The notes under the pieces were generated by a model. It did not search any database and was not told the origin of the DNA. It worked only from the letters and a program-made list of their open reading frames with translations. Shown here one piece after another: positions 6,792-28,875 of a stretch of DNA of 64,000 nucleotides. This DNA is from an uncultured Gaiellales bacterium (GTDB taxonomy: Bacteria; Actinomycetota; Thermoleophilia; Gaiellales; Gaiellaceae). How positions within the stretch are numbered: position 1 is the first letter of the stretch; each line of letters begins with the position of its first letter. The stretch lies in assembly GCA_964602945.1 (NCBI GenBank), contig CAZRTE010000001.1:7594-71593 (forward strand). Reading direction: 5' to 3'. The translations under genes were made by a program, and so were the position numbers.

Positions 6792-6814
6792 GGCCCGAGC
6801 CTAGACTGCCCTCG

Positions 6815-9408: not shown

Positions 9409-9416
9409 CCTGCTCC

Positions 9417-10410: not shown

Positions 10411-10764
10411 TCAACCCGAAACCGGCCGGGCTCCTCTGACCTCGAGCAGCTCGAGCCCGATGTCCTCGCCGATCGGGGCCGGCGTGCCGCAGGACGGGCA
10501 GACGACGAGATGGCCGGCGACGTCGTCCCGCGACAGCCGCCAGGCGGCCCCGCACGCCTCGCAGACGCGCTCGTCCTCGGCCTCCTCGACCAGGAGCCGC
10601 GACCCCTCGAGCGGCGTGTCGAGCGTCTGCATCTCGTATGCCTGCTGGAGCGACTCGGGCGAGAAGACCGGACTCGCCCGGACCCGAACCTCCTCGACGG
10701 CTCCCGCGTCCGGCTCGCCGGCCAGGCGGCGGATCAGGGCGCTCACGGCGTGGTAGTCGTGCAT
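10411..10764 (-). CDS. hypA: Hydrogenase nickel-insertion protein HypA
   Basis: C-terminal 117 aa of artefactual ORF 10411..11880, starting at the ATG at 10764. MHD N-terminus plus a CEAC...CPSC zinc motif. Confidence 0.8.
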   Translation of the reverse strand: MHDYHAVSALIRRLAGEPDAGAVEEVRVRASPVFSPESLQQAYEMQTLDTPLEGSRLLVEEAEDERVCEACGAAWRLSRDDVAGHLVVCPSCGTPAPIGEDIGLELLEVRGARPVSG

Positions 10765-11237
10765 GGCTCTCCCTTCGCTGTGTCCCAGGCCTCGATCTGC
10801 TCCAGCACGCGCCGGCCGAGCTCGTCGAGCGCGGCGGCCACGGACTCGCTGAGCGGCGCACCGAACGTCGGCGGCTCCGCCACCTCGACGGCGAGCACCC
10901 GCGTGCGGCCCGGGAAGCCGAGCCCGAGCCGCTCGGCGACGGCCGCGAGCTCGGGGATTCCCGCGTGGTGGATGCTCGGCGCGACGACCGGCCCCACCTC
11001 GGTCAGCCCGAGCTCGACGATCGTGCCGGGCGGGTTGCGGCCGGTGCGGATCGAGTCCACGACGACGGCACGGTCGTAGCCGTCGAACACGTCGAGCAAG
11101 GTGAGGCCGGACGCCGCGCTCTCGACGACATCGGCCCGGCCGGCGAGCTCGTCCCGGAGCGCGCGCACGGCGAGGATGCCCGCACCGTCGTCGCCCGCGT
11201 ATTCGTTGCCGAGCCCGAGGACGAGCGTGCGCATCAC
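10743..11237 (-). CDS. Hydrogenase maturation endopeptidase (HycI/FrhD/HoxW family) for the Mvh-type enzyme
   Basis: ORF 10743..11237: MRTLVLGLGNEYAGDDGAG. Lies immediately downstream of the large subunit and overlaps the hypA start by 22 nt. Confidence 0.8.
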   Translation of the reverse strand: MMRTLVLGLGNEYAGDDGAGILAVRALRDELAGRADVVESAASGLTLLDVFDGYDRAVVVDSIRTGRNPPGTIVELGLTEVGPVVAPSIHHAGIPELAAVAERLGLGFPGRTRVLAVEVAEPPTFGAPLSESVAAALDELGRRVLEQIEAWDTAKGEPCTTTTP

Positions 11238-12698
11238 TCAATCCCGGCGGAGCTCGCGCACGACCTCGCCGGCCGGGTCGTGGATCTCGACGAGCAGCGG
11301 CAGGTGGCCGGGCAGGGTGTGCGTCGCGCAGCCGAAGCACGGGTCGTAGGCGCGGAACGCCATCTCCACCTTGTTCAGGACCGCCTCGTCGACCTCGGCG
11401 CCGTGGATCAGGTCCCGGGCGGCCTTGTCGATCGACATCCCGATCCGGGCGGCGTTGTTCTGGGTGGCGACGATGAGGTTGGCCGAGGTGATCAGGCCGC
11501 GCTCGTCGCTCCGGTAGTGGTGGAAGAGCGTCCCGCGCGGCGCCTCGACGACGCCGATGCCCTCCTCCGGTGTCGCCGTCGGCAGCGTGCGCACGTCCGG
11601 ATCGAGGATCTCCGGGTCGGCCGCGAGCTCGGCCATCCGCTCCGCCGCGTACTGGAGCTCGACGAGCCGGGCCCAGTGCGTGGCGAGCGTGTGGTGCACC
11701 GGCTTGCCGCCGAGCGTCGCGAAGAGCTCGTCGTACGCCTCCTGCGCCCGCGGCGTGGGCATCCCCTCGGTCACGTTCAGGCGGGCGAGGGGCGCGACGG
11801 CGAAGACGCCGCTGTCCGCCCCGTCGACGAAGCCGTGCCAGCCCACGTCCTTGAGGAAGCAGAACTTCACGTACGTCCACGGCTCGACGTGCTCCGCGAC
11901 GTGGTCGAGGTAGTCGGAGCCGGCGAAGGAGAGGAACTCGCGGCCCTCGGGGTCGACCACCCGGAGCGTGCCGTCGTAGAAGTTGACCTGCTTGTCGGCG
12001 TCGACGAGCCCCATCGAGTACGTGCGGTGCGTGTACGTCTCCGAGGTGACGAGCTCGACGTAGTCCGGGTTGCCGAGCACGACGTCGCGGAACGCCTGCA
12101 GCGCGAAGCCGCCGAAGTCGACGGCGCGCGCGGCGGCCGCCTGCGCCTGCTCCTGGAGCTCGGCCGTGAGCGGGCGCGAGATCCCGCCCGGGAGGCCGAA
12201 GACGGGGTGCACGGCCTTGCCCGCGACCGCGGCCATCAGGTCGCGGAGCTGCTTGCGGACGCCGATCACCTCCTTGCCGGCCTCGAGCCCGACCTTGTTC
12301 ACGACGCCGAGGATGTTCCGCTCGCCCTTCGGCGCGTCCGGGCCGACGATGAAGTCCGGCCCGCCGAGGAAGAAGAAGTGCAGCGCGTGGTCCTCGACCA
12401 TGAAGGCGCTGTAGAGAAGCTCACGGATCTTCTTCGCCGCCGGCGGGGGCTCGACCCCGAAGAGGTCGTCGAGCGCCTTCGTCGCCGCCATGTGGTGGGC
12501 CATCGGACAGACGCCGCAGATGCGCGAGGTGATCTGCGGCATGTCCTCGGCCCGCCGTCCCTGGGCGAACTTCTCGAAGCCGCGCAGCTCGGGGATCTGG
12601 AGGTAGGCGCGGTCGACCTCCCCTGCGTCGTCGAGGAAGACGTGGACGCGCCCGTGTCCCTCGAGGCGCGTGATCGGATCGATCAGGATCTCGCTCAT
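11238..12698 (-). CDS. mvhA: [NiFe]-hydrogenase large subunit, MvhA-like (group 3c by gene context)
   Basis: Real frame inside ORF 11238..13640, starting at the ATG at 12698. MSEILIDPITRLEGHGRV..., N-terminal RICGVCPMAHH, C-terminal DPCFGCATH followed by a 26-aa cleavable extension. Confidence 0.85.
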   Translation of the reverse strand: MSEILIDPITRLEGHGRVHVFLDDAGEVDRAYLQIPELRGFEKFAQGRRAEDMPQITSRICGVCPMAHHMAATKALDDLFGVEPPPAAKKIRELLYSAFMVEDHALHFFFLGGPDFIVGPDAPKGERNILGVVNKVGLEAGKEVIGVRKQLRDLMAAVAGKAVHPVFGLPGGISRPLTAELQEQAQAAAARAVDFGGFALQAFRDVVLGNPDYVELVTSETYTHRTYSMGLVDADKQVNFYDGTLRVVDPEGREFLSFAGSDYLDHVAEHVEPWTYVKFCFLKDVGWHGFVDGADSGVFAVAPLARLNVTEGMPTPRAQEAYDELFATLGGKPVHHTLATHWARLVELQYAAERMAELAADPEILDPDVRTLPTATPEEGIGVVEAPRGTLFHHYRSDERGLITSANLIVATQNNAARIGMSIDKAARDLIHGAEVDEAVLNKVEMAFRAYDPCFGCATHTLPGHLPLLVEIHDPAGEVVRELRRD

Positions 12699-13666
12699 GG
12701 CACGGGCTCCTTCTCGACGCGGTGGTGGAGGGGCGACGCCGGGAGGCTGTAGCGGTAGAACGTGCCGACCGGGTCGGCGATCTCCGCGATCCGGGCGACG
12801 ATCTCGTCCTCCTCGGTCGCGCCGAGCAGGGAGGCGATCGCCGACAGCGCCTTCGCGCCCTGGTCGAGCACGCGGCTCGTCGGGCCCATGCAGCCGGTGC
12901 AGGGCATGTTGCCGCCGATGCACGCGGCGTTGCAGCCCGCGCGCGTGGCGGGGCCGAGGCAGACGAGCCCCTGGGCGAGGAGGCAGATCTCCGGGTCGGC
13001 GACGACCTCGTGCGGCCGCTTGAAGGCCTCGAGCGTGAGCTGCTCGGGCTTCGTCGCGGCCCGCGGGCACTCGGAGCAGAGGGCGACGTCGGGCGCGAGC
13101 ACCGCTCCCTTCTCGGGCGCCGTGCCCTCGACGAGGGCGGTCACTGCGGCGAGGATCAGGTGCGCCGGCGGCGGGCAGCCGGGGAGGTAGTAGTCGACGT
13201 CGATCACCTGGTCGAGCGTGCGCACCGAGGCGTCGAAGCTCGGCAGCGTGAGCGTCCCCTCGTCGACAGCCGACTCCTCCACGGGTCTCGTGGCGCCGTT
13301 CTCCACGCTCGGCGCCTCCTCGTAGACGAAGTCGAGGATCTCGTCGCGCTCGTACTGGTTGGCGAGGCCCGGGATGCCGCCGAGGATGGCGCAGCTGCCG
13401 AAGGCGACGACGGCTCCGGCCTTGCGCCGCAGGAGCTCGACCATCTCCACCTGCTCGGAGGTGCGCACGGCACCGTTGATGAACGCAGCCGCGAGCTCGC
13501 CGTCGCCGAGCGCCTCGACGTCGGTGCGCTTGAAGTCGAGCGCGACCGGCCAGAAGGCGATGTCGACGAGCTCGACGACCGTGAGGATGTCCTCCCCGAG
13601 GTCGACGACCGCCTCCTCGCAGCCGCCGCAGGAGGCACACCAGTAGAAGGCGACTTTCGGCTTCAT
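12695..13666 (-). CDS. mvhG: [NiFe]-hydrogenase small subunit, MvhG-like
   Basis: Inside ORF 12695..14059, starting at the ATG at 13666. MKPKVAFYWCASCGGCEEAV, GSCAILGGIPG, PGCPP, CTGCMGP cluster ligand motifs. 4-nt overlap with mvhA. Confidence 0.85.
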   Translation of the reverse strand: MKPKVAFYWCASCGGCEEAVVDLGEDILTVVELVDIAFWPVALDFKRTDVEALGDGELAAAFINGAVRTSEQVEMVELLRRKAGAVVAFGSCAILGGIPGLANQYERDEILDFVYEEAPSVENGATRPVEESAVDEGTLTLPSFDASVRTLDQVIDVDYYLPGCPPPAHLILAAVTALVEGTAPEKGAVLAPDVALCSECPRAATKPEQLTLEAFKRPHEVVADPEICLLAQGLVCLGPATRAGCNAACIGGNMPCTGCMGPTSRVLDQGAKALSAIASLLGATEEDEIVARIAEIADPVGTFYRYSLPASPLHHRVEKEPVP

Positions 13667-14109
13667 GCCCTCACCCCCGCTTCCACCCGCTCGGCGTGCC
13701 GCAGCCGCAGCGGGCCGAGCGCGCGCAGCTCCTCGGTCATCTCGTTGCAGACGCGCTGCACGGCCTCTCCCTCCGAGGCGGAGATCCACTCCAGCCGCAG
13801 CCGCTCCTTCTCGATCCCCAGGTCGGCGAGGAGGGCGTGGAGGAGCTCGACCCGGCGCCGGGTCTTGTAGTTCCCCTCCGAGTAGTGGCAGTCGCCCGGG
13901 TGGCAGCCGCCGATGAGGACGCCGTCGGCGCCGCCGTGGAAGGCGGCGAGGACGAACTGCGGGTCGACCCTCCCCGAGCACATGAGCCGGATCGCGCGGA
14001 CGTTCGGCGCGTACTGGAGCCGCGAGATGCCCGCAAGGTCGGCGGCGGTGTACGTGCACCAGGTGCAGAAGAAGGCGACGATCTTCGGCTCGAAGTCGGC
14101 CTCAGGCAA
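13663..14109 (-). CDS. mvhD: Methyl-viologen-reducing hydrogenase delta subunit (MvhD)
   Basis: Inside ORF 13663..14193. Proposed TTG start at 14109 overlaps the hdrA stop. PKIVAFFCTWCTY...RLMCSGRVDP...GGCHPGDCHY is the MvhD signature. Confidence 0.75.
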   Translation of the reverse strand: MPEADFEPKIVAFFCTWCTYTAADLAGISRLQYAPNVRAIRLMCSGRVDPQFVLAAFHGGADGVLIGGCHPGDCHYSEGNYKTRRRVELLHALLADLGIEKERLRLEWISASEGEAVQRVCNEMTEELRALGPLRLRHAERVEAGVRA

Positions 14110-17100
14110 GGGCGAGCACCCCCTCCAGCTCGGCGAGCACCTGCTCGTCGGTGAACAGGTGCTGCTGCAGCGCCCCCGACGGGCAGGCGGCAACGCAGAC
14201 GCCGCAGCCCTTGCACAGCACCTCGTTGACCGAGGCGAGATTCGTCGCCGCGTCGAAGGAGATCGCGGCGAACGGGCACAGGCCGACGCACGTCCGGCAG
14301 CCCGAGCACGCCGCCGGCTCGACGAAGGCGGTGCTCGGCTCGAGCTCGACGTGGCCGCGGTCGATCATCGCCAGCACCTCGGCCGCGGCCGCGCCCGCCT
14401 GCGCGACCGTGTCCGGGATGTCCTTGGGGCCCTGGCAGGCGCCGGCGAGGAAGACGCCGTCGGTGAAGGTCGAGACCGGCGCGAGCTTCGGGTGGCGCTC
14501 GGTGAAGAAGCCCTCGGTGCCGCAGCCGATGTTGAACAGGCGGCGCACGTCCTCCGCGTCCGGCTGCGGCTCGATCCCGACGGCGAGCACGACCATGTCC
14601 ACGGCCTCGTGCCTGACCTCGCCGAGCAGCGTGTCCTCGGCGTGGACGACGAGCCTCCCGCGCTCCTCGGTGACCTCGCCGACGCGCCCGCGGACGAACT
14701 GCGTCCCCTCCTGCAGCACGCGGTCGTAGAACTCCTCGTAGCCCTTCCCGGGCGTGCGCATGTCGATGTAGAACTCGACGATCTCGGTGTCCTCGCCCGC
14801 GCGCTCGCGGATCAGGTGGGCGAGCTTGAGCGAGTACATGCAGCAGACGCGCGAGCAGTACGCGTTCGTGTTCGCGTCGCGGGAGCCGACGCAGTGGACG
14901 ATGCCCACCTTCGAGGGCCGGCTGCCGTCGCGCAGCACAAGCTCGCCCTGGGTCGGGCCGGAGGCGTTCAGCAGCCGCTCGACCTCGAGGCTCGTGTACA
15001 CGTTCGGGAGGCGGCCGTAGCCGTAGGCGGGCGCGCGGTGCGCGTCGAAGGCCTGGAAGCCCGTGGCGAGGACGATCGCGCCGACGTCGAGCTCCGTCTC
15101 ACGGTCCGGCATGAGCAGGTCGATCGCGTCGGCCTCGCAGACGGCGATGCACTCCCCGCACTCCGAGCAGACGCCGCAGTCGAGACAGCGCTCGGCGGCG
15201 TAGCGCGCCTCCTCCTCGCTCAGCGGCGGCTCGAGCTCGGCGAAGTCGGCCGGCTCCGGCTCGTGGCGCGTGTGCGGCTCGCGCGGCTCGAGCGGCCGGT
15301 GGGCCGGGTGCGAGCGTGCGAGCACGTCCGCCTTCTCCGCCACCGGCAGCTTCTCGTCGAACTCGATCTCCTCGAGCGTCTCGCCGCGGAGGAAGCGGTC
15401 GACCATGAACGCGGCGCGGCGCCCCTGCCCGACGGCGTGCGCGATGTCGAGAGCGCCGAGGACGGCGTCGCCGGCGGCGAAGACCCACGGCACGGCGGTC
15501 TGGAGCGTCCGCGGCTCCGTTGCGGAGAGGTCGCCCGCGAGCGCGCCGTCCGCGCTGAGCCCGATCGCGGCGATCACCGTGTCGCAGGGGATCACGTGCT
15601 CGCTGCCCGGCACCGGCTCGGGCCGCCGGCGGCCGGACGCGTCGGGCTCGCCGAGCTCGGTGCGCACGCAGCGCAGCCCCGTCACGCGGCCGTCGCCCTC
15701 CACCGAGACGGGGGCGACCTGGAAGGCGAGCGCCGTCCCCTCCTGCTCGGCGGCCTCGATCTCCTCCGGATAGGCGGGCATCTCGGTGCGGCTGCGGCGG
15801 TACGCGATCGTCACCTCGCGCGCCCCGAGGCGGCGCGCGCTGCGAGCGGCGTCCATGGCGACGTTCCCGCCGCCGACCACCACGACGCGCTCACCCTCGA
15901 GGCGCGGCGCCCGGCCGTCCTTGACGGCCTCGAGGAAGTCGAGTCCCGAGCGGACGCCGTCGAGCTCCTCGCCCGGCACGCCGAGCCGGGTCGAGACGGG
16001 CGCGCCGGTGGCGACGAGCACCGCGTCGAAGCCCCGGCCGTGCAGCTCCTCGAGGTCGCCGACGCGCGTGCCGGTCTCGATCCGGACGCCGATCGCGGTC
16101 ACGTTCTCGATGTCCCGCTCGACGACGGCGGCGGGCAGCCGGTAGTCGGGGATCGCGAGGCGGAGCATCCCGCCGGGCTCCGCCTCGGACTCGAAGATCG
16201 TCACGCCGTGGCCGCGGCGGCGCAGCTGCCAGGCCGCGGTGAGGCCGGCGGGGCCGGAGCCGACGACGGCGACGCGCGTGCCGTTCGTGGGCGGCGCCTC
16301 GAGCTCGCTCGCGGCGTGCGTCGCGTAGTGCCGGTCGGCGATGAAGCGCTTGAGCCGCCGGATCGGCACCGGGGTCTCGAGGTCGTCGCGGGTGCACTCG
16401 TCCTCGCACTGCGCGTAGCAGGCGCGGCCGAGCGTGCCGACGAGCGGGGTCGCGTCGAGCACGAGCTGGAACGCCTTCTCGTACTCGCCGGCGCGGACGA
16501 GCGACACGTAGCCGTGCGCCTTGATCCCCGCCGGGCAGTTGAACGTGCAGCGGGAGGTGCCCGCGCGGTCGATCACCGGGATCGCCGGAATGGCCTGCGG
16601 GAACGGCTTGTACGCGACGGGGCGCGTGCCGAGGCCCTCGTCGAACTCGGAGGAGATCCCGCGCCACGTGCAGTGCTCGACGCACAGGTCGCAGCCGGTG
16701 CACGCCTCCTCGTCGATGAAGCGCGACTTCCGCCGCACCTTGACCTTGAAGTTGCCGACGTAGCCCGAGACCTCCTCGACCTCGCTGAAGCTCAGGAGCT
16801 CGATGTTCGGGTGCTGGCCCGCCTGCACCATCTTCGGGGTGAGGATGCAGGCGGCGCAGTCGAGGGTCGGGAACGTCTTGTCGAACTTCGCCATGTGGCC
16901 GCCGATCGTCCCCTCGCGCTCGACGAGGTAGACGTGCTTGCCCGACTCGGCGAGCGTGAGCGCGGCGTGGATGCCCGCGATGCCGCCGCCGACGACGAGC
17001 GCGTCCGGGTGCACGGGCACCTGGCGGCGCTCGAGGGACTCCTGCGCGGCGACCCGCCGCACCGCCCCCGCGACGAGCGCCTTCGCCTTCTCGGTGGCCG

Positions 17101-17452
17101 CGTCGCCGTCCGCGGTCACCCAGCTGACGTGCTCGCGGATCGAGGCCATCTGGAAGAGGAAGGGGCTGACGCCGCCCGCCTCCGTGGCGCGCCGGAAGGT
17201 CGCCTCGTGCATCAGCGGCGAGCAGGAGGCGACGACGACCCGGTCGACGAGCCCCTCGCGGACGTCCTGGACGATCAGCTCCTGGCCCGGGTCGGAGCAC
17301 ATGAACTTGTACTCGCGCGCGACCGCGACGTACGGCAGCGTCGCGGCGAAGTCGACGACCTCGCCGACGTCGACCTTCTGGGCGATGTTCAGGCCGCAGT
17401 GGCAGACGTAGACGCCGATCTTCGGCGAGCCGTTCTGCTCAAACGCCGGCAC
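14102..17452 (-). CDS. hdrA: HdrA-like heterodisulfide reductase subunit A with an inserted NfnB/GltD-like FAD/NAD(P)H module (1116 aa)
   Basis: ORF 14102..17452. HdrA motifs: IGVYVCHCGLNIA, VVGGGIAGIHAAL, TLDCAACILTPK, CTGCDLCVEHC, YCSRVCCMYS, C-terminal 2x4Fe-4S. Residues ~296-690 look GltD-like: CTFNCPAGI...GRACYAQCEDEC, VAVVGSGPAGL, VVVVGGGNVAMD. Confidence 0.85.
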   Translation of the reverse strand: MPAFEQNGSPKIGVYVCHCGLNIAQKVDVGEVVDFAATLPYVAVAREYKFMCSDPGQELIVQDVREGLVDRVVVASCSPLMHEATFRRATEAGGVSPFLFQMASIREHVSWVTADGDAATEKAKALVAGAVRRVAAQESLERRQVPVHPDALVVGGGIAGIHAALTLAESGKHVYLVEREGTIGGHMAKFDKTFPTLDCAACILTPKMVQAGQHPNIELLSFSEVEEVSGYVGNFKVKVRRKSRFIDEEACTGCDLCVEHCTWRGISSEFDEGLGTRPVAYKPFPQAIPAIPVIDRAGTSRCTFNCPAGIKAHGYVSLVRAGEYEKAFQLVLDATPLVGTLGRACYAQCEDECTRDDLETPVPIRRLKRFIADRHYATHAASELEAPPTNGTRVAVVGSGPAGLTAAWQLRRRGHGVTIFESEAEPGGMLRLAIPDYRLPAAVVERDIENVTAIGVRIETGTRVGDLEELHGRGFDAVLVATGAPVSTRLGVPGEELDGVRSGLDFLEAVKDGRAPRLEGERVVVVGGGNVAMDAARSARRLGAREVTIAYRRSRTEMPAYPEEIEAAEQEGTALAFQVAPVSVEGDGRVTGLRCVRTELGEPDASGRRRPEPVPGSEHVIPCDTVIAAIGLSADGALAGDLSATEPRTLQTAVPWVFAAGDAVLGALDIAHAVGQGRRAAFMVDRFLRGETLEEIEFDEKLPVAEKADVLARSHPAHRPLEPREPHTRHEPEPADFAELEPPLSEEEARYAAERCLDCGVCSECGECIAVCEADAIDLLMPDRETELDVGAIVLATGFQAFDAHRAPAYGYGRLPNVYTSLEVERLLNASGPTQGELVLRDGSRPSKVGIVHCVGSRDANTNAYCSRVCCMYSLKLAHLIRERAGEDTEIVEFYIDMRTPGKGYEEFYDRVLQEGTQFVRGRVGEVTEERGRLVVHAEDTLLGEVRHEAVDMVVLAVGIEPQPDAEDVRRLFNIGCGTEGFFTERHPKLAPVSTFTDGVFLAGACQGPKDIPDTVAQAGAAAAEVLAMIDRGHVELEPSTAFVEPAACSGCRTCVGLCPFAAISFDAATNLASVNEVLCKGCGVCVAACPSGALQQHLFTDEQVLAELEGVLALA

Positions 17453-18356
17453 CGACCGCTCCTTCCGCCCCAGCGAGCTCCGGCAGCCGCCAGCCGATCA
17501 TCCGCGGGATCCCGAGCGTCCGCTCGTCGAGCCCGAGCGCGAGCCCGACGAGCTGCGTGAAGTACGCGACCGTGAGCTCGATCGGCTCGAACGTGCGCGA
17601 CATCTGCCCCTGGAACGCCTCGAGGTTGAACTGGCAGAGCGGGCACACGCTCGCGACGACGTTGGCCCCGCGCTCGCGCGCGTCCTGCAGCAGCTCGAAG
17701 CTGCGCTTGAGCGTCGCCTCGGGCAGCGCGCCGACGATCGGGCCGCCGCAGTAGCAGGAGCCGCCGCAGCAGCGGGTGCGGCGCGGCCACTCGATCGTCT
17801 CCGCCCCGAGCGCCTGCATCAGCCGCTCCATCGAGGTCGGCTCGCGCCGGTCGTCGAAGGTCGCGTACGGGCGAACGAGGAGGCAGCCGTAGTAGCAGGC
17901 GACGCGCAGGCCCTCGAGCGGGCGGACGACCGCCTCGGCGATCCGGTCGAGTCCGACGTCGTTGACGAGCACGTCCAGGGGGTGCCGGGTGCGCGCCCGG
18001 CCGGCGTAGTCGAGCCCGACCGCCTGGAGAGCCCCGCCGACGCGCTCCGCCTCGGCCCCGCCGCCCTCGAGCAGGCGCTCGGTCTTCAGCAGCGCGCGGT
18101 AGCAGCCCGCGCAGGGAGCGACGAGGTCGACGTTCTCCGCATCCGGCCACGCATCCTCTGCGAGCGCGAGATTGCGCGCGGAGAGCGCGAACCCCTTCGC
18201 CGCATCCGTGGACGGGTAGGCCGTCGCACCGCAGCAGTTCCAGTCGTCGAGGGCGTCGAGGCCGCTGCCGAGCGTCTCGAACACCGCGAGCAGCGACTCC
18301 TCGTAGGGGCGCCCCGTGCCTCCTGCAGAGCAGCCCGGATAGTACGAGTAGCTCAT
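17439..18356 (-). CDS. hdrB: Heterodisulfide reductase subunit B (two CCG domains)
   Basis: Inside ORF 17439..18845, starting at the ATG at 18356. MSYSYYPGCS..., WNCCGA and TRCCGGS CCG motifs. Overlaps the hdrA start by 14 nt. Confidence 0.85.
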   Translation of the reverse strand: MSYSYYPGCSAGGTGRPYEESLLAVFETLGSGLDALDDWNCCGATAYPSTDAAKGFALSARNLALAEDAWPDAENVDLVAPCAGCYRALLKTERLLEGGGAEAERVGGALQAVGLDYAGRARTRHPLDVLVNDVGLDRIAEAVVRPLEGLRVACYYGCLLVRPYATFDDRREPTSMERLMQALGAETIEWPRRTRCCGGSCYCGGPIVGALPEATLKRSFELLQDARERGANVVASVCPLCQFNLEAFQGQMSRTFEPIELTVAYFTQLVGLALGLDERTLGIPRMIGWRLPELAGAEGAVGAGV

Positions 18357-18853: not shown

Positions 18854-19027
18854 GACATCCGTCTGCTCCGCGGAGAGAGCAGATTCGACCGGCCGCGTAT
18901 CGAGAGCGGTGCCCGTGTCAGCCCTGCCTTTCTCGACATCTCAGGCCTAACACGGCGACGATGACCGGCCTTCGGTACTTCCTACTCACAGACCTGCGGA
19001 CACCCCCGCCAACCGCTACAACCACGT

Positions 19028-19043
19028 GGTTGTCCTCGCCGAG
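19028..19043. promoter_or_regulatory. Perfect 16-bp palindrome ACAACCACGTGGTTGT in the hdrC/hypF divergent intergenic region (candidate operator)
   Basis: Read directly. Located 95 nt upstream of the hypF ATG and 175 nt from the hdrC start, within the lowest-GC stretch of the 284-bp spacer. Confidence 0.4.
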
Positions 19044-19137
19044 GTGGCGCGTCTCCACCGCGAGGTCGGTACCGGGACCGGTCGCCGTGCGGCTTTCCCG
19101 CGATGCCGCGGCATGTGCGCGGCGGCACGCTCTCCCT

Positions 19138-21291: not shown

Positions 21292-21512
21292 GCATCCCCG
21301 GCCAGGTGCTCGAGCGGCTGCCGGACGGCCTCGCGCAGGTCGACTTCGGCGGCGTGCGCCGCTCGGTGAGCGTCGCGTTCACGCCCGAGGCCGAGCCGGG
21401 CGACTGGGTGCTCGTCCATGTCGGCTTCGCGCTCGCGACGCTCGACGAGGAGGAGGCGCAGGCCACCCTCGACCTGCTCGGCGAGGCGCTCGAGGCGGAG
21501 CTCTCGCCGTGA
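21282..21512 (+). CDS. hypC: Hydrogenase assembly chaperone HypC
   Basis: Last 76 aa of artefactual ORF 20496..21512. MCLGIPGQV N-terminus; overlaps the hypF stop. Confidence 0.85.
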   Translation: MCLGIPGQVLERLPDGLAQVDFGGVRRSVSVAFTPEAEPGDWVLVHVGFALATLDEEEAQATLDLLGEALEAELSP

Positions 21513-22624
21513 GGTACGTCGACGAGTACCGGGACAGCCGCGCGGCGAAGGCGATCGCCGCCGAGCTGCGTACGCTCGTCGAGCCGGGAGCGCACGTGAA
21601 GCTCATGGAGGTGTGCGGCGGGCACACGCACGCGATCTACCGGCACGGCATCGACACGCTGCTCCCCGACGAGGTCGAGCTCGTCCACGGGCCGGGTTGC
21701 CCGGTCTGCGTCATCCCGATGGGACGGGTCGACGACGCGATCACGATCGCCGAGCGGCCCGAGGTGACGTTCACGAGCTTCGGCGACATGTTGCGCGTGC
21801 CGGGCGGCCGGCGGCGGTCGCTCCTCGAGGCGAAGGCGCGCGGCGCGGACGTGCGCATCGTCTACTCGCCGCTCGACGCGCTCGCGATCGCGCGCGCGGA
21901 GCCGCAGCGCGAGGTCGTCTTCTTCGGGGTCGGCTTCGAGACGACGGCGCCGGCGGTCGCGCTGACGCTGATCCGGGCGCGCGAGCTCGGGGTGCGCAAC
22001 TTCTCCGTCTTCTGCAACCACGTGCTCGTCTCCCCCGCGCTGCGCGCGATCCTCGACGCTCCCGAGACGGAGATCGACGGCTTCATCGGCCCCGGGCACG
22101 TGTCCACGGTGATCGGCACGCGGCCGTACGAGTTCATCAGCCGCGAGTACGGCCGCCCCGTCGTCGTCGCCGGGTTCGAGCCGACCGACATCCTCCAGGC
22201 GGTCGCCCGGCTGCTCGGCCAGCTCCGCGCAGGCCGCGCGGAGGTCGAGAACCAGTACGGCCGCGTCGTGCGTGACGAGGGCAACCCCGCCGCCCTCGCG
22301 GCGCTCGAGCGCGTCTTCACCGTCCGCGACGACTTCGAGTGGCGCGGGCTCGGCGCCATCCCGCGCAGCGGCTTCCGCATCGCCGACGCGTTCGCCGAGT
22401 GGGACGCCGAGAACCGCTTCGAGGTACCGGGCGCGCGGATCGAGGATCCGAAGGCCTGCCGCTGCGGCGACGTGCTCCGCGGCCTGGCCAAACCCTACGA
22501 GTGCGGCGTGTTCGGCACGGCCTGCACGCCGGAGAAGCCGCTCGGCACGTGCATGGTCTCGAGCGAGGGCGCGTGCGCCGCGTACTACGCCTACGGGCGG
22601 CACCGGCCGAAGGTGCCTGCATGA
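21509..22624 (+). CDS. hypD: Hydrogenase formation protein HypD
   Basis: Inside ORF 21284..22624. The GTG at 21509 overlaps the hypC stop. Motifs: CGGHTHAI, GPGCPVCV, FETTAP. Confidence 0.9.
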   Translation: MRYVDEYRDSRAAKAIAAELRTLVEPGAHVKLMEVCGGHTHAIYRHGIDTLLPDEVELVHGPGCPVCVIPMGRVDDAITIAERPEVTFTSFGDMLRVPGGRRRSLLEAKARGADVRIVYSPLDALAIARAEPQREVVFFGVGFETTAPAVALTLIRARELGVRNFSVFCNHVLVSPALRAILDAPETEIDGFIGPGHVSTVIGTRPYEFISREYGRPVVVAGFEPTDILQAVARLLGQLRAGRAEVENQYGRVVRDEGNPAALAALERVFTVRDDFEWRGLGAIPRSGFRIADAFAEWDAENRFEVPGARIEDPKACRCGDVLRGLAKPYECGVFGTACTPEKPLGTCMVSSEGACAAYYAYGRHRPKVPA

Positions 22625-23631
22625 CCGACGAGGTCGTGACCCTCGCCCACGGAGCCGGGGGCAAGGCGTCGCGGCGGCTCGTGGAGGAGCTCTTCCTGCC
22701 CGAGCTGCGCAACCCGCTGCTCGAGCCGCTCGGCGACGCGGCGCTCGTGTCCGCCAACGGGACGCGGCTCGCTCTCACGACCGACTCCTATGTCGTGCGG
22801 CCGCTCGTCTTCCCCGGCGGCGACATCGGGGAGTTGGCCGTCAACGGCACGGTCAACGACCTCGCCGTCTCCGGCGCGACGCCGCTCGCGCTCACCGCCG
22901 CCTTCGTCATCGAGGAAGGGTTTCCGGTCGACGACCTGCGCGCTCTCGCGCATTCGGCCGCGCAGGCGGCGCAGGCTGCGGGCGTCTCCATCGCCGCCGG
23001 GGACACGAAGGTCGTCGAGCGCGGCGCAGCCGACGGCCTCTTCGTCACGACGTCCGGCGTCGGCCTGCTCGACCCGCGCGTGCGGCTCGAGCCGTCGCGT
23101 GTCCGGCCCGGCGACCGCGTGCTCGTGTCCGGCGGGATCGCCGAGCACGGCATCGCCGTGATGCTGGCGCGGGGCAACCTCGCTCTCGAGCTCGACCTCG
23201 AGAGCGACACGGCCCCGCTGCACGAGCTCGCGGCAGCCCTCTGCGAGCTCGGCGGCGACCTGCGCTGGATGCGCGACCCCACCCGCGGCGGCCTCGCGAC
23301 GACGCTGAACGAGCTCGCGTCCGGCGCCGGAGCGACGATCGTGCTCGAGGAGACCGCGATCCCGGTGCGCGACGACGTCCGATCCGCTTGCGAGCTGCTG
23401 GGGATCGACCCGTTCTACGTGGCGAACGAGGGCAAGCTCGTCGCCGTCGTGGCGCCGGCGGTGGCCGAGGCGGCGGTCGCGGCGCTCCGCCGGCACCCGC
23501 TCGGCGCCTTCGCGGCGGACATCGGCGAGGTGCGGGAGGACGATGTGCCGCTCGTGCTCGCCGAGACGCCGTTCGGCGGCAGCCGCATCGTCGACATGCT
23601 CGTCGGCGACCCGCTGCCGCGCATCTGCTGA
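22621..23631 (+). CDS. hypE: Hydrogenase expression/formation protein HypE
   Basis: Inside ORF 22339..23631. The ATG at 22621 overlaps the hypD stop (ATGA). AIR-synthase-like fold motifs and the C-terminal PRIC. Confidence 0.9.
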   Translation: MTDEVVTLAHGAGGKASRRLVEELFLPELRNPLLEPLGDAALVSANGTRLALTTDSYVVRPLVFPGGDIGELAVNGTVNDLAVSGATPLALTAAFVIEEGFPVDDLRALAHSAAQAAQAAGVSIAAGDTKVVERGAADGLFVTTSGVGLLDPRVRLEPSRVRPGDRVLVSGGIAEHGIAVMLARGNLALELDLESDTAPLHELAAALCELGGDLRWMRDPTRGGLATTLNELASGAGATIVLEETAIPVRDDVRSACELLGIDPFYVANEGKLVAVVAPAVAEAAVAALRRHPLGAFAADIGEVREDDVPLVLAETPFGGSRIVDMLVGDPLPRIC

Positions 23632-23640
23632 CCGCGCGCG

Positions 23641-23913
23641 TCAGCCTTCCGGCAGCTCGACCTCGACGGTCTCGAGGACGACCCCGGTCGCCTGCGGATC
23701 GTCGAGATCCTGCTCGAGCACGGCGTCGACGCGGGCGCCCTCCGCGACGGTGCCGCGCGAGGCGTCGTCGAAGTGCTCCCGGAAGTGCTCCGGCGTGAAG
23801 TGCGACAAGGCGCCGAGCCGCACGCCCACGCGCGTCACCCGGACCGCGTCCTCGGCGCGCGCGACGGTCTCGATCTCCCGGACGAGATCGCTCATGAGGG
23901 CGCGCTCGTGCAT
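23641..23913 (-). CDS. HypA-like protein lacking the zinc-finger module (90 aa, no Cys)
   Basis: C-terminal 90 aa of artefactual ORF 23641..24501, starting at the ATG at 23913. MHERALMSDLVREIE... is collinear with HypA up to AEGARVDAV, then DLDDPQAT replaces the CxxC...CxxC region. Confidence 0.65.
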   Translation of the reverse strand: MHERALMSDLVREIETVARAEDAVRVTRVGVRLGALSHFTPEHFREHFDDASRGTVAEGARVDAVLEQDLDDPQATGVVLETVEVELPEG

Positions 23914-24371
23914 GCCTCCCTCTTCAGATCGCTCAGCACCGCGGCGGCCGCCCCGGCGACCGCGGTCTCGACGGACGGCGTCAGGGGCGCACCGGTCTCG
24001 AAGCTCCGCCCCTCGATCCCGTAGACGAGGACACGCCGCGGCAGCCGCCCGAGCGCGCGCGCGAGCTCGATCGTCTCCGCGAGTCCGATCGCATGAGTCG
24101 AGGAGCGGAACTCCTGCGCAGGAACCGGCCTGCGCCCGGCCTCGAAGCGATGGAGCGTGCCCGCCGGCGAGCCGGATGTGACCGCGTCGACGAGGACGGC
24201 GGTGTCGGCCCCTTGCCAGGCGTCCATGAGACGGGTCGGCTCCTCGTCGCACGCGACGACGTCCACCCAGCGCGGCACGCGCTCGCGCAGCCGCTCGGCG
24301 ACCGCGACTCCCGCGCCGTCGTCGCCGCGCAGCCGGTTGCCGATCCCGATCACGACGACGCGCGGATTCAC
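23892..24371 (-). CDS. Hydrogenase maturation endopeptidase for the Hyh-type enzyme
   Basis: ORF 23892..24419 trimmed to the GTG at 24371, which overlaps the large-subunit stop (GTGA). VVVIGIGNRLRGDDGAG. Confidence 0.75.
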   Translation of the reverse strand: MNPRVVVIGIGNRLRGDDGAGVAVAERLRERVPRWVDVVACDEEPTRLMDAWQGADTAVLVDAVTSGSPAGTLHRFEAGRRPVPAQEFRSSTHAIGLAETIELARALGRLPRRVLVYGIEGRSFETGAPLTPSVETAVAGAAAAVLSDLKREACTSAPS

Positions 24372-25663
24372 TTCCGCTCGATGTCGAGCGTGAGGAAGTG
24401 CGTGGCGCACGAGATGCACGGGTCGTAGTTGCGGATCGTCTGCTCGCAGAGCCCCCGCAGCGCATCGTCGGGGAGCTCGACGTTGCGCGCGACCACGTCA
24501 CGGAGGTCGTCCTCGATCGCGAGCTGGTTCTGGGACGTCGGAGGCACGATCTTGGCCTCGAGGATCGTCCCCTCGTCGTCGATCCGGTAGCGGTGGTAGA
24601 GCAGCCCGCGCGGCGCCTCGCTCACGCCGTAGCCGACCCCGGGCACGGGCTCTACCGGCTCGGCCGGGCGGTCGGGCTCCTCGTACGCCTCGATCGCCCG
24701 CAGGGCCTCCTCGCACGCCTGCACGAGCTCGACGCTGCGCACGACGATGCTGCGGAACGGATCCCGGCACTCGGCCCCGAGGCCCGCCTCCGCGGCCGCC
24801 TCGCGCGCGAGCGGCGACAGCTGCGCGGAGTTGAGGCTGTAGCGGGCCAGCGGGCCGCACAGATACGTGCCCCCGCTGCTGCGCAGACGCGACTGGAGCG
24901 CGTTCGAGCGCTCGACGTGCAGCTCCTCGAAGTGCTCCTCGTACTCGGCCGGTACGAGGTCGAGGCCGCCGGAGGAGCGGATCCGGCCCCGCTCGATCGC
25001 GTAGTCCTCCTCGTGGGTGAGCGCGACGAGATCGCCCTCGACCGTCCGCTCCGGGAACTCGAAGCCGGCCGTCCAGCGCACGGTCTCGAGCGACGCCTCG
25101 AGCGCCCGCTCGAGCGGTCCGGCGAGCGCGCGCAGCTCGTCCCGGGTCGGGACGCGGTAGAAGCCACCGACGCGGAAGTTGACCGGGTGGATCTCGCGGC
25201 CTCCGACGACCCGCATCACGTCGTTGCCGGTCCGCTTGAGCGCAAGCCCGCGCTCGACGGCCGCGGGCGCGTCGCGGGCGAGGTCGATCGCGCTCTCGTA
25301 GCCGAGGAAGTCCGGTGCGTGGAGCATGTAGACGTGCAGCGCGTGGCTCTCGATCCACTCGCCGCAGTAGAGGAGGCGGCGGAGCAGGCGGATGGGCTCC
25401 GGCACCTCGACGCGGCAGAGGCTCTCGAGCGCGTTCACGGCGCTCGTCTGGTACGCGACCGGGCAGATTCCGCAGATCCGGGCCGTGATGTCGGGAGCCT
25501 CGAGGAACGAGCGGCCGCGGAGGAAGGCCTCGAAGAAGCGCGGCGGCTCGAAGATGCGCAGCTCGACGTCCTCGACCTGCTTCCCCGCGATGCTGACGCT
25601 CAGGGCTCCCTCGCCCTCGACCCGCGCGAGGTACTCGGTCACGATCGTGCGCCGCTCAGCCAT
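24368..25663 (-). CDS. hyhL: [NiFe]-hydrogenase large subunit, group 3b-like (sulfhydrogenase alpha / HyhL)
   Basis: ORF 24368..25663: [19 protein letters not shown]-terminal DPCISCATH plus a 9-aa extension. Gene order B-G-S-L. Confidence 0.85.
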
Positions 25664-26429
25664 GCTCGACCGCCTTGCCGAACTGGTCGGCGCCGGCGTT
25701 GAAGGTGCGGAAGAGACGCTCGACGTCGCGCTGGCTCCGTCCGAGCCTGCGCAGGAGCGGCACGAGGGCGGCGGTGTTCGGCGACTCCATCGGGCCGAAG
25801 CAGCCGAAGCAGCCGCGGTCGTAGGCCGGACACAGCGCGCCGCAGCCCGCCTGGGTGACCGGGCCGAGGCAGGCGACGCCTCGCGCGACCGGGAGGCAGA
25901 CGACGCCGCGCTGCTTGCACTCGGTGCAGACGCTCGTCGTCGGGATCCTGGGCCGGCGCCCGACGAGCAGGGCGGTCACGACCTCGAGCAGCTGGTACTT
26001 GTCCACCGGGCAGCCGCGCAGCTCGAAGTCGACGTCGACGTGAGCCGAGACGGGAGTCGAGGTCGCGAGCGTCGAGATGTACTGCGGCGTCGCGTAGACG
26101 GCGCGCGTGAACTCGGCGACGTCCGCGAAGTTCCGCAGCGCCTGGATGCCGCCGGACGTGGCGCAGGCGCCGATGGTGACGAGCACCGTCGACGAGCGGC
26201 GCACGGCCTCGATCCGTTCCGCGTCGTGCGGCGTGGTGATCGATCCCTCGACGAGCGAGAGGTCGTACGGGCCCTCCGCGACCGCGCTCGTCGCCTCGCG
26301 GAAGTCGGCGATCTCGACCGCGCCGGCGAGCGCGAGCAGCTCGTCCTCGAGGTCGAGCAGGGAGAGCTGGCAGCCGTCGCAGGAGGCGAACTTCCAGACG
26401 GCGAGCTTCGGCTTCGCGTCGGCGCTCAT
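25656..26429 (-). CDS. hyhS: [NiFe]-hydrogenase small subunit, group 3b-like (delta / HyhS)
   Basis: Inside ORF 25656..26948, starting at the ATG at 26429. [30 protein letters not shown], multiple C-terminal Cys. Confidence 0.85.
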
Positions 26430-27274
26430 AGCTCGCGCACCTCCAGCAGCCGGCCCACGTCCGCCTGGGAGTAGACGGGGCCGTCGCGGCAGACGAGGGT
26501 CGGGCCGAGCTGGCAGTGGCCGCAGAGGCCGACGCCGCAGCGCATGTCGCGCTCGAGCGAGAGGATGATCCGCTCGTCCGGGACGCCGCGCTCCCGCAGC
26601 GCCTCGACGGTGAAGTGCATCATCACCTCCGGGCCGCAGACGAAGGCCGTGACGGCCCCGGGACGGAACGACGCCCGCGCGAGGAGCTGCGGCACCACGC
26701 CGACCCTTCCCAGCCACTCCGTCCCCGCGGCATCGACCGTGACCTCGACCGTCGCCTGCGCCCCCCACCCCACGAGCTCGTCGGTGTAGAGCAGGTCCTG
26801 CGGCGTGCGAGCGCCGTAGAGGATGGACACGTCCCGGTAGCGGATGCGCTGGGCGAGGACGCGGCGAACGACCGGACGCAGCGGCGCGAGGCCGATGCCG
26901 CCCGCGACGACGACGATGTCCCCGCCGGACGCCTCGGCGACCGGCCACCCGTTCCCGAACGGACCGCGCAGGCCCAGGACGGCGCCCGGCTCGGCGGCGC
27001 AGATCGCGCGGCTCACCGCGCCGACCGCGCGCACCGTGAGCACGAGCGGGTCGCCCTCCCGCTCGGGGAGGCCGCTGACCGAGATCGGCACCTCGCCGAT
27101 CCCGAAGGCGTGCACCATCACGAACTGCCCGGGCGAGACCTCGAGACCGGCGCCGACGGGCTCGAGCGAGATCGTGGACGTGTCCACCGTGTCCTGCCGC
27201 CGCCCGGCGACGCGGAACGGGAGCGGCACGAACGCACCCGCTGGGTGTTGCTCAGTGAGCGCGGCCGTTGCCAT
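26426..27274 (-). CDS. hyhG: Sulfhydrogenase gamma-like FAD/NAD(P)H-binding subunit with C-terminal 2Fe-2S (HyhG; PyrK-like fold)
   Basis: ORF 26426..27274: ferredoxin-reductase-type layout and C-terminal [14 protein letters not shown]. Confidence 0.8.
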
Positions 27275-27722
27275 AGATGTCCAGGAGGCGGAGGTGCGTC
27301 CACTGCAGGCGCTCGATCAGGAGCTGCGCGAAGCGGTTCAGGAGGTCGAAGCCGAACGCCGGATCGGCCGCGCACTTGTCCCGCAGGCAGGCGCCGTCGA
27401 AGGACGTCGCCCGTACCTGCGTGAGAGCGCGGGCGTCGAAGTGCGAGCGGTAGGGCGGGAAGAGCCACGACCAGCCCAGCAGGTCACCCGCCTCGACGGT
27501 CGCGATCACGAGGTCGCCGCGCGCCGGCACGAAGTTGCCGATGGCGACGGAGCCGTGGCGGACGAGGTAGAAGTGGTCGGCCGGATCGCCCTGCCTGAAC
27601 ACCGTCTCTCCCGCCTCGAAGCGGATGTTCCGGCCGCAGCCCGCGATGAGCTCCAGCTCCTCCGCGGGCATCCCCTCGAAGAACGGAACGTCCGTGAGCA
27701 GCGTCTCAAGCGACTTCGGCAT
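27252..27722 (-). CDS. Stand-alone cyclic-nucleotide-binding-like domain protein (156 aa, no DNA-binding domain)
   Basis: C-terminal part of artefactual ORF 27252..28613, starting at the ATG at 27722. [15 protein letters not shown]...[27 protein letters not shown]...GDLLGWSWL. Overlaps the hyhB stop by 17 nt and the hyhG start by 23 nt. Confidence 0.75.
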
Positions 27723-28875
27723 GGCTCTCCTCCTTTCGCAGCGCAGCGACCTCCTCGGTGATGTCGATCCCGACCGGGCACCAGGTGATGCAGCGGCCAC
27801 ACCCGACGCAACCCGAGGTGCCGAACTGGTCGACCCAGGTGCCGAGCTTGTGCGTGAGCCACTGCCGGTAGCGGGAGCGGGCGGAGGTGCGGATGCTGCC
27901 GCCGTGGATGTACGAGTAGTCGAGCGAGAAGCACGAGTCCCAGACGCGCGTGCGCGCCGTCTCCTCCCCGGCGAGGTCGCTCGTGTCCTCGACCGAGGAG
28001 CAGAAGCACGTCGGGCAGACGAGCGTGCAGTTGCCGCACGTGAGGCAGCGTTCCGCGACCTCGTCCCAGCGCGGGTGCTCGAGCCGGGCGGCGAGGAGGT
28101 CGCGCAGATCCGCGCTCTCCATCGTCCGCCCCATCCGTCCCGCGGCAGCGTCGAGCGCGGCCGCCGCCGCGGCGGCGTCGGCCTCGACGGCCGGACGCGA
28201 CGGAAGCTCGGCGAGCACCTCGGCCCCGCGCTCGCTGCCCGCCTCGGCGAGGAAGCGGTGCTCGCCGTCGAGGAGCTCCGTGAGTGCGAGGTCGTAGCCG
28301 TCCCCGGCGCGCGGCCCCGCGTCCATCGAGGCGCAGAAGCAGGTCCCGCCCGGCTCGACGCAGTTGACGGCGACGAGGAAGGCGCCGTCGCGCCGGGCGG
28401 CGTAGTCGCGGTCGACGAACGTCCCCTCGAGGAAGACGCGATCCTGGATGGCGATCGCCTGCAGCTCGCACGCGCGCACGCCGAGCAGGGCGAGCGGCGT
28501 CTCGTCCGGCGGCTCCTCCTCGACCACCGGAACGCCGCCGTTCGCGCGGGCCCGCCAGAGCTCGACCCGCGGCGGAAAGAGGAAGCGCTTCCACGAGTGC
28601 GGGCCGACGACATAGCCGAAGCGCGCCTCGTCCTCGCGCCGCTCGAGCCGGTAGGAGCCCGGCTCCTGGCGGTCGGTCCAGCCGACGGGGAGCTCCTCGG
28701 CGCCCTCGAGCTCGTCGTAGACGATCGCGCCGTCGCGGATCGTCGGGCCGAGCACGCGGAAGCCGCGGCGCCGCAAAGCTTCGATCAGATCGTCGAGCGC
28801 TTGCGGGAGGAGAACTGCTGAGACATTCGTGAGCTCCACCGCATGCAGCGTCCGCCTCCGCCGCCCCACCTGCAT
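27706..28875 (-). CDS. hyhB: Sulfhydrogenase beta-like Fe-S subunit (HyhB)
   Basis: ORF 27706..28875 (alternative GTG start at 28839): [37 protein letters not shown]. Confidence 0.8.

Follow-up and report, generated by a model that had tools for sequence, protein, structure and literature searches.

How did a soil bacterium of the Gaiellaceae (Thermoleophilia, Actinomycetota) come to carry genes for two different [NiFe] hydrogenases in the middle of its housekeeping genes, and what might these enzymes do? The question is raised by a block of 19 genes that occupies 18.5 kb (positions 10411–28875) of a 64-kb stretch of its DNA, referred to here as the window. Gene boundaries were determined from a frame plot of third-codon-position G+C (GC3), which is clean in a window of 70–75% G+C throughout, together with start-codon mapping, and families were assigned from Pfam and NCBIfam matches. 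All 19 genes are where the initial annotation of this DNA had placed them, with the same junctions (overlaps of 0, 4, 8, 10, 14, 17, 22 and 23 nt), and every product belongs to the expected Pfam or NCBIfam family. The order was also confirmed, with two minus-strand operons surrounding a plus-strand hypFCDE set. The first operon (module A, 10411–18853), hdrC-hdrB-hdrA-mvhD-mvhG-mvhA-protease-hypA1, is of the group 3c type and the second (module C, 23641–28875), hyhB-cNMP-hyhG-hyhS-hyhL-protease-hypA2, is of the group 3b type; hypFCDE (module B, 19138–23631) lies between them. Both large subunits contain the RxCGxC and DPCxxCxxH nickel-binding motifs and, as previously noted, each ends in a cleavable C-terminal extension (26 residues in MvhA and 9 in HyhL, counted from the conserved histidine), with a gene for its own HycI-family protease behind it. 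We consider it likely that the block is a mosaic of these three modules, assembled stepwise and inserted between pndr and dapA, and that it encodes a group 3c Mvh hydrogenase with an HdrABC of type III, a group 3b Hyh hydrogenase, and HypFCDE proteins that serve both. Related loci recovered in the searches are referred to by L numbers where they need to be told apart.

The large subunit of module A, MvhA (11238–12698, minus strand like the whole module), is 486 residues long and contains the motifs RICGVCPMAHH (residues 59–69) and DPCFGCATH (residues 452–460), the latter directly before the extension. Its best NCBIfam match was VhuA (369 bits, versus 164 for the group 3b ShyA and 139 for the group 3a FrhA), and in the PDB it matched HydL of Acetomicrobium mobile (394 bits), the methanogen Mvh/Vhu chains (365, 359 and 346 bits), HoxH of group 3d (316 bits) and group 3b enzymes (92–98 bits), in that order. 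The small subunit MvhG (12695–13666, 323 residues, PF01058) also matched its Vhu counterpart best (VhuG 200 bits versus HydD 92 bits). The protease for MvhA (10743–11237, 164 residues; PF01750, E 9e-7, above the curated cutoff) is 83% identical to its counterpart in L081 and L085. MvhD (13663–14109, TTG start), the [2Fe-2S] adaptor subunit of 148 residues, matched PF02662 (FlpD) over its full length with 186 bits, and its gene forms a single overlapping operon with mvhAG and with hdrA, hdrB and hdrC. HdrB (17439–18356, 305 residues) has two CCG domains (PF02754 twice, with CCG motifs at residues 41 and 196; TIGR03288 HdrB, 159 bits) and is predicted to hold the disulfide-reducing site, while HdrC (18353–18853, 166 residues) is the subunit with two [4Fe-4S] clusters (Fer4_8; TIGR03290 HdrC, matched from profile position 3). 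The start of hdrC is uncertain. The GTG at 18853 has GGAG upstream, beyond it the frame is open for another 30 codons (18854–18943) that look like the extended N-terminus of L085 HdrC, and the conserved ATG of hdrC is out of frame in the window due to a 10-nt length difference. The view of MvhA as an Mvh/Vhu-like subunit linked to mvhD and hdrABC was therefore upheld by gene organisation and best matches, which place it in group 3c.

HdrA (14102–17452, minus strand) is 1116 residues long instead of about 650 and contains an NfnB/GltD-like module for flavin adenine dinucleotide (FAD) and NADPH of about 460 residues that sits inside its inserted ferredoxin domain. The HdrA core is made up of residues 1 to about 295 and about 756–1116, and the insert of residues about 296–755. 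Within the HdrA sequence, matches to Pfam Fer4_20 and Pyr_redox_2 were found, NCBIfam HdrA2 matched in two stretches and PRK12771 covered residues 299–793. The alignment to HdrA chains in the PDB was also split in two, with the C-terminal stretch pairing residues 756–1113 with residues 287–653 of the solved chains, and NfnB (4ylf_B) aligned to residues 298–691. A search with the insert alone gave as its nearest structures Thermotoga maritima NfnB (250 bits) and the NfnB-like modules for NADPH in 9bov, 9n5u and 8oh5. It is flanked by the cysteine motifs of the ferredoxin domain, CTGCDLCVEHC (residues 251–261) before it and CLDCGVCSECGEC (residues 756–768) after it, and contains an FAD motif, GSGPAG (398–403), a motif of the GxGxxA type, GGGNVAMD (527–534), the sequence YRRSR (551–555) and two [4Fe-4S] sites. 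The equivalent of Arg187 of NfnB is kept in the insert, within IPDYRLP, and that of Lys409 of HdrA is kept in the core; in the solved enzymes these two residues hydrogen-bond the bifurcating flavins. A GltD/NfnB-like domain within the ferredoxin domain, with the dinucleotide motifs intact, makes this protein a type III HdrA.

The equivalent architecture has been named 'type III HdrA' in methane-metabolising archaea (PMC12054007) and 'HdrA-NfnB' in the anaerobic methanotrophic archaea ANME-1 (PMC9012536). For the HdrA in the MetFV-HdrABC-MvhD complex of Moorella, PMC5861303 lists two FAD and gives NADH as the donor. In the openly searchable literature, archaea and the Moorella MetFV complex were the only cases for which this architecture was found discussed. 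By the rule given in PMC12054007, a GxGxxA motif corresponds to NADP(H). Since HdrA holds an NfnB-like NADPH module, NADP(H) is predicted to be a third substrate. The best 120 cluster representatives of an HdrA protein search were all 1103–1272 residues long with an identical domain set. Among these 120, the representatives with 66–88% identity include Actinomycetota-labelled entries, and those with 53–62% identity are from Acidobacteriota, Syntrophorhabdaceae, Hydrogenedentes, Sumerlaeia and Thermosulfidibacter, among others. In the Thermosulfidibacter-like context, the gene list gives a CCG (HdrB-like) gene, hdrA and mvhD, in this order, together with two flanking genes without a Pfam entry.

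The genes of module C are also on the minus strand. HyhL (24368–25663, 431 residues), the large (alpha) subunit, has its first nickel motif at residues 62–72 and DPCISCATH at residues 414–422, followed by the short extension. It matched the NCBIfam families for the alpha subunits of the Pyrococcus sulfhydrogenases (ShyA 266 bits, HydA 217 bits) better than VhuA (144 bits), and in the PDB it matched Pyrococcus furiosus soluble hydrogenase I (SHI) with 214 bits, the Thermococcus kodakarensis group 3b enzyme with 210 bits, Mvh with 195 bits and HoxH with 129 bits. The small (delta) subunit HyhS (25656–26429, 257 residues, PF01058) followed the same pattern (ShyD 168 bits and HydD 152 bits versus VhuG 112 bits). 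HyhG (26426–27274, 282 residues) is an AsrB-like gamma subunit with FAD/NAD(P) and [2Fe-2S] domains (PF00175 and PF10418; PRK08345, AsrB, ShyC), and HyhB (27706–28875, 389 residues) is an AsrA-like 4Fe-4S beta subunit (PF17179 Fer4_22, 114 bits; HydB/ShyB/AsrA). The protease for HyhL (23892–24371, 159 residues) belongs to the HycI family (PF01750, E 1e-13). The second large subunit is thus sulfhydrogenase/Hyh-like with AsrA-like beta and AsrB-like gamma partners, in agreement with the group 3b type originally given to it.

A stand-alone protein of 156 residues with a cyclic nucleotide monophosphate (cNMP)-binding domain and no helix-turn-helix is encoded in the same operon (27252–27722, minus strand; PF00027), in a frame that overlaps both neighbours. 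Its phosphate-binding motif is RSH, where R[ST]A would be canonical. The protein has 2042 homologues, the best 120 of which are 149–157 residues long and 72–89% identical, and its gene was found in the same slot of every Hyh operon compared (L001, L083, L084 and L087–L092). A cluster with equal gene content, including a cNMP-domain protein, has been described in Rhodococcus equi 103S (PMC13332983), and a cNMP-type gene in a methanotroph group 3b cluster was termed HoxI-like (PMC12319191). The constant slot and these two reports make the cNMP protein a known accompaniment of actinobacterial group 3b operons. By analogy, we adopt the working hypothesis that the predicted protein may be a HoxI-like accessory subunit. 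In L082, a distant cNMP-domain protein of 171 residues, 45% identical to that of the window, is encoded directly upstream of hdrCBA-mvhDGA (7728–8243); cNMP-domain proteins therefore go with both hydrogenase types in these bacteria. In L083, the Hyh cassette (6436–20471) is found amid genes for Usp, rubrerythrin, CBS-domain, trehalose-synthase-like and HSP20 proteins and pyruvate:ferredoxin oxidoreductase, surroundings that resemble dormancy or hypoxia regulons.

The maturation genes of the block are hypA (twice), hypC, hypD, hypE and hypF, an incomplete set. HypF (19138–21291, plus strand, 717 residues) is a carbamoyltransferase with five HypF domains, and its start may be as far upstream as 18961. 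It is followed on the same strand by HypC (21282–21512, 76 residues; PF01455, 96 bits), HypD (21509–22624, 371 residues; PF01924, 519 bits) and HypE (22621–23631, 336 residues; AIRS and AIRS_C domains). HypA1 (10411–10764, minus strand, 117 residues; PF01155, E 4e-11) is a nickel metallochaperone with an MHD N-terminus and a CEAC...CPSC zinc ribbon. HypA2 (23641–23913, minus strand) has only 90 residues, carries an MHE nickel motif, matches PF01155 over profile positions 1–64 only and does not have the zinc-ribbon CxxC...CxxC cysteines present in HypA1. A short HypA of 94 residues was also found in L083 (13789–14073) and L084 (13792–14076). Like the window, the related cassettes L081–L086 contain no hypB, and judging from this gene content the protein that works with HypA in nickel insertion must have its gene elsewhere in the genome or have been replaced. 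The hypE and hypA2 genes are convergent, with their stops 9 bp apart (23631–23641) and no terminator-like structure between them.

The core region around the block reads rimP-nusA-infB ... truB-ribF-rpsO-pnp-(GGDEF)-pepR-dapB on the high-coordinate flank and dapA-rnj on the low-coordinate flank. The initial annotation had the block wedged between dapA and dapB. It does lie inside the conserved rpsO-pnp-pepR-dapB ... dapA-rnj core, but the neighbour of hyhB is pndr, and the insertion point is pndr|dapA. The pndr gene (28925–30250, minus strand) encodes a class-I flavoprotein disulfide reductase of 441 residues that resembles MerA, Lpd and mycothione reductase. A search with RNase J recovered 80 loci (71–90% identity, none identical), nearly all of them metagenome-assembled genomes (MAGs) of Gaiellaceae or Thermoleophilia. 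The backbone in the relatives runs GGDEF-pepR-dapB, pndr, dapA-rnj, with 0 or about 3.3 kb between dapB and pndr and a variable cargo of 0 to 4.6 kb between pndr and dapA; more distant relatives have dapB followed after a short interval by dapA, with no pndr. Of the 20 relatives that yielded pndr, dapA and rnj together, 19 have no hydrogenase gene or remnant (E≤1e-3) at the site, and in several relatives pndr and dapA are less than 60 bp apart. Since pndr is directly upstream of dapA in about 20 hydrogenase-free Gaiellaceae relatives, it is part of the backbone, and the possibility that it belongs to the block and supplies thiol/disulfide chemistry was rejected.

The sole exception among the 20 relatives is L001, the sister of the window in a neighbour-joining tree of RNase J, DapA and PNDR. 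Its site contains the Hyh operon alone, in the order pndr-hyhB-cNMP-hyhG-hyhS-hyhL-protease-hypA; between this hypA and dapA lie, in this order, a hypC-like gene, a gene for an EamA transporter and a DUF6390-like gene. Its pndr|hyhB spacer is recognisably similar to that of the window. In seven other members of the clade (RNase J 86–89% identical), no hydrogenase was found at the site. With the block absent from the interval in almost all relatives, the earlier proposal that it is an inserted island holds. Marks of mobility are missing, with no tRNA and no integrase or transposase domain among the window genes scanned, as had been observed, and no border repeat; the repeat search brought up only the similarity of the paralogues mvhA/hyhL and mvhG/hyhS. 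There is likewise no compositional break. G+C is 0.726–0.743, and tetranucleotide usage correlates with that of the flanks at 0.975 (whole block) and 0.941–0.963 (modules), values within the range of equal-sized segments of the flanks.

Two further parts of the original proposal did not stand, namely that the block is a single island and that its acquisition is old. The modules differ in their nearest relatives and in their usual partners. The Mvh-Hdr cassette, hdrCBA-mvhDGA-hycI(-hypA-hypC-eamA), was found in three unrelated neighbourhoods (L081, L085 and L082), with the main subunits 74–91% identical, and also in L086, which is from Acidobacteriota. L083 and L084 hold the Hyh cassette (71–86% identical) in other surroundings, followed by a hypC-eamA-DUF6390 tail. 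The nearest hypFCDE sets (L087–L092, 62–88% identical) are divergent from a hyh operon that is only 53–72% identical to the Hyh of the window; in the window, hypFCDE points away from hdrC and runs towards the end of the hyh operon. As to age, the sister locus has the Hyh operon only and the seven clade members have nothing, indicating that the Mvh-Hdr and hypFCDE part, at the least, is specific to its lineage. The closest copies of each module are 75–91% identical, and for modules A and C they are on contigs of 67–72% G+C. Because the copies checked have a similar, high G+C, the missing compositional signal is expected and composition says nothing about age.

The simplest history is a gain in two steps, with loss in L001 as the alternative. 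The Hyh cassette would have been inserted at pndr|dapA before the window and L001 diverged, and Mvh-Hdr and hypFCDE would have been added later in the lineage of the window, displacing the hypC-eamA-DUF6390 tail. The hypE/hypA2 junction looks like the recombination seam where this tail of the Hyh cassette was replaced. It is also conceivable that the whole block was ancestral at this site in Gaiellaceae and has been lost, wholly or partly, from the relatives, which would make this a deletion-prone region and not an island. The dapB-dapA interval is generally variable and contains other cargo or nothing, L001 has retained the Hyh operon at the same junction, and the absence of a compositional break, mobility genes and repeats would fit such a history. 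However, none of the 20 relatives but L001 has even a remnant of a hydrogenase gene at the site, the pndr-dapA junction is tight in several, the cassettes occur in unrelated contexts of other genomes and the three modules have different nearest relatives, making an ancestral block improbable. An assembly artefact, in which a chimeric metagenomic contig has brought the modules together, could be suspected as the closest relatives are MAGs, the exact HdrA protein was found on a single NCBI contig, and the dapA|hypA1 and hypE|hypA2 junctions are known from the window only. Yet the pndr|hyhB junction recurs with a similar spacer in the independent genome L001, the tetranucleotide signature of each module is inside the flank range, and the frames run cleanly across all junctions with operon-like overlaps. 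We give this explanation hardly any weight.

Other points weigh against the stepwise mosaic of a group 3c and a group 3b enzyme as we describe it. The preference for gain over loss rests on parsimony and a neighbour-joining tree without support values, the relatives are mostly MAG contigs, and the absence counts refer to this site and not to whole genomes. The classes 3c and 3b are based on comparison of bit scores (NCBIfam and PDB) and on the partner subunits. None of the NCBIfam matches reaches its curated equivalog cutoff, which is unsurprising for distant bacterial members, so none is an equivalog call. The top PDB match of MvhA is the NuoEF-linked A. mobile enzyme and not an Hdr-linked one, and the PDB margin by which HyhL favours group 3b over Mvh (214 versus 195 bits) is small. 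No candidate gene for a disulfide carrier or a ferredoxin was found in the block, a six-frame motif search of the window found no HypB GTPase signature, and a subunit role for the cNMP protein is hypothetical. Taken together, the NCBIfam matches, the PDB matches and the partner subunits support the 3c and 3b assignments.

The analysis documents gene content, domain architecture, conserved catalytic residues, variable presence among relatives and the mosaic origin. How the enzymes might work can be outlined from these assignments, with subunit assembly, NADPH specificity, the disulfide and the direction of catalysis as matters of inference. In module A, the predicted electron path starts at the NiFe site, leads over MvhG and MvhD to the flavin of HdrA and then divides. 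One branch would lead through HdrC to the CCG clusters of HdrB and a disulfide, and a second to the ferredoxin domains that hold the NfnB-like flavin and the NADPH site. The complex would thus have three partners (H2, a disulfide and NADP(H)), and one flavin or both would carry out flavin-based bifurcation or confurcation. Module C would be an NAD(P)-linked bidirectional group 3b [NiFe] hydrogenase made up of beta, gamma, delta and alpha subunits and the HoxI-like cNMP protein, with its own protease and a zinc-less HypA. The Mycobacterium smegmatis group 3b enzyme has reportedly been studied experimentally. A statement in PMC13332983, citing Greening 2016, holds that group 3b enzymes couple NAD(P)H oxidation to H2 production. 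HypFCDE of module B would assemble the Fe(CN)2CO moiety for the two active sites, and each enzyme would use its own HypA and protease. The physiological role may be redox balancing or H2 use under hypoxia, for example, by analogy with proposals for mycobacterial group 3b enzymes.

Module A had been taken for a methanogen-type MvhADG-HdrABC. The six subunit families are all present, but the Hdr part is not of the methanogen type, as HdrA has the NfnB-like module. The complex might still work as it does in methanogens, with two H2 reducing ferredoxin and a heterodisulfide, if the insert were structural or an electron wire only and took no part in NAD(P)H chemistry. The full set of six subunits, the 357–376 bits of the C-terminal half of HdrA to methanogen HdrA, and the retained C-terminal ferredoxin domain with its Lys409 equivalent all speak for this. 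On the other side, the insert has complete FAD and NADPH motifs, the YRR sequence and the Arg187 equivalent of NfnB, its length is conserved in all of the best 120 cluster representatives, and the literature on the same architecture reads an NAD(P)H site (PMC9012536, PMC12054007); a methanogen-like mode of action is therefore unlikely. The heterodisulfide of coenzymes M and B (CoM-S-S-CoB) is very unlikely to be the disulfide of HdrB in an actinobacterium. To our knowledge, CoM/CoB biosynthesis is not expected in Actinomycetota.

A more specific form of the three-partner scheme is that Mvh with a type III HdrABC makes up a distinct class of enzyme with two flavins and three substrates, in which H2 oxidation is coupled to the reduction of NADP+ and of a cellular disulfide and NADP(H) replaces or supplements the ferredoxin branch. 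This is a tentative suggestion that may well prove wrong. If it is correct, non-methanogenic and largely aerobic soil bacteria would be able to make NADPH from low H2 or to vent reductant as H2 under hypoxia, and the Gaiellaceae locus would be a natural pairing of two different H2/NADPH couplers. The Mvh-type III Hdr cassette itself is conserved from soil Actinomycetota (L081, L082 and L085) to Acidobacteriota (L086).

The spacer between the divergent hdrC and hypF genes (18854–19137) was examined for regulatory elements. It contains a perfect 16-bp palindrome, ACAACCACGTGGTTGT, at 19018–19033, for which about 0.03 matches with up to three mismatches are expected by chance in the window. As the palindrome was not found in 86 related loci, it is not a conserved operator. 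A second element, the box TAGGAAGTACCGA (18972–18984, minus strand), is about 120 bp upstream of hdrC and recurs before hdrC in L085 and, with one mismatch, in L081. A promoter or operator element is a possible reading. Control of the DosR type found no support, with no sites for GGGACnnnnGTCCC with up to one mismatch in the window against about seven expected by chance. A sigma-70 scan returned no promoters and a terminator scan returned one site, no more than in shuffled sequences, and such scans are uninformative at the high G+C of this host.

In the flanks, dapA (9417–10349, minus strand) is annotated from a GTG at 10349, and its true start, judged from relatives, is probably the ATG at 10301 (MLGHVITAM...). 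PNDR has a CSYFAC redox motif at residues 40–45 and reads YPTFSE where many members of its family have HPTxxE. The dapB gene (30351–30983, minus strand) encodes a short protein of 210 residues, has a GTG start and overlaps the stop of pepR (30980–32275) by 4 nt. A GAF-GAF-GGDEF diguanylate cyclase gene (32470–34074, minus strand) lies between pnp and pepR, a position conserved in Gaiellaceae relatives. A second variable interval of about 2–3.4 kb was found between dapB and pndr in L003, L007, L008, L034, L041, L015, L019 and L020; the two genes are no more than about 100 bp apart in the window and in L011, L012, L017 and L018.

Soil and sediment metagenomes, in which Gaiellaceae and related Thermoleophilia are common, supplied most of the relatives in this analysis. 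Cultured representatives of these groups are few; the cultured member of the lineage of the window is aerobic. No literature on group 3b or 3c hydrogenases together with Gaiellales, Thermoleophilia or Actinobacteriota was found. The locus shows that one Gaiellaceae genome can carry two cytoplasmic H2-cycling enzymes beside core housekeeping genes. Since the cassettes are shuffled between close relatives, the hydrogenase content of a member of this family cannot be deduced from its taxonomy. The components are all of known kinds and the cassettes abound in databases. The value of the locus is therefore mainly in annotation and comparative genomics, and the biochemistry of the bacterial Mvh-type III Hdr is its most interesting point.

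Among known systems, module C is closest to the group 3b enzymes, represented by P. furiosus SHI, the cytosolic enzyme of T. kodakarensis, M. smegmatis Hyh (Hyd3) and the R. equi 103S cluster, with which it shares the alpha/delta/gamma/beta set and an AsrA/AsrB-like diaphorase. The R. equi cluster has the same six protein types, including the cNMP-domain protein. In contrast, the archaeal group 3b systems have no cNMP-domain gene, the window operon adds a zinc-less HypA, and the similarity of HyhL to the solved group 3b enzymes is low (about 210 bits). The cNMP protein itself can be likened, by domain, small size and gene context, to HoxI of Ralstonia eutropha. The gene for HoxI, also a small protein with a cNMP-binding domain, accompanies those of a soluble hydrogenase linked to NAD(P), though one of group 3d rather than 3b. 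HoxI has been proposed to mediate NADPH activation, according to a citation in PMC12319191.

For module A, the best PDB match of MvhA, including the C-terminal extension, is HydL of A. mobile NiFe-HydABCSL (7T2R), but the partner there is a NuoEF-like HydABC bifurcating module with no MvhD or HdrABC. The methanogen MvhADG-HdrABC of Methanothermococcus thermolithotrophicus (5ODC) has the same six subunit families (359 bits for MvhA and 680 bits for HdrA to the 5ODC chains), a FlpD-type MvhD, two CCG domains, the Lys409 equivalent and a cleavable extension. It differs in that the HdrA of the window has the NfnB/GltD-like insert, the host is without known CoM-S-S-CoB, and a single operon holds the genes in the order hdrCBA-mvhDGA, along with a protease gene and a hypA of its own. 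The type III HdrA or HdrA-NfnB systems (HdrA9–11 of ANME-1, Bathyarchaeota and the two-FAD HdrA of Moorella thermoacetica, the last likened by its published description) share the second flavin and the NAD(P)H site. Their partners are FdhAB or MetFV, whereas that of the window is an Mvh [NiFe] hydrogenase in a bacterial host, and the archaeal proteins have GxGxxG (PMC12054007) where the window has the NADPH-type GxGxxA. With its Mvh hydrogenase connected to an NfnB-inserted HdrA, the locus is a clear-cut bacterial case of an architecture that is very common in sequence databases.

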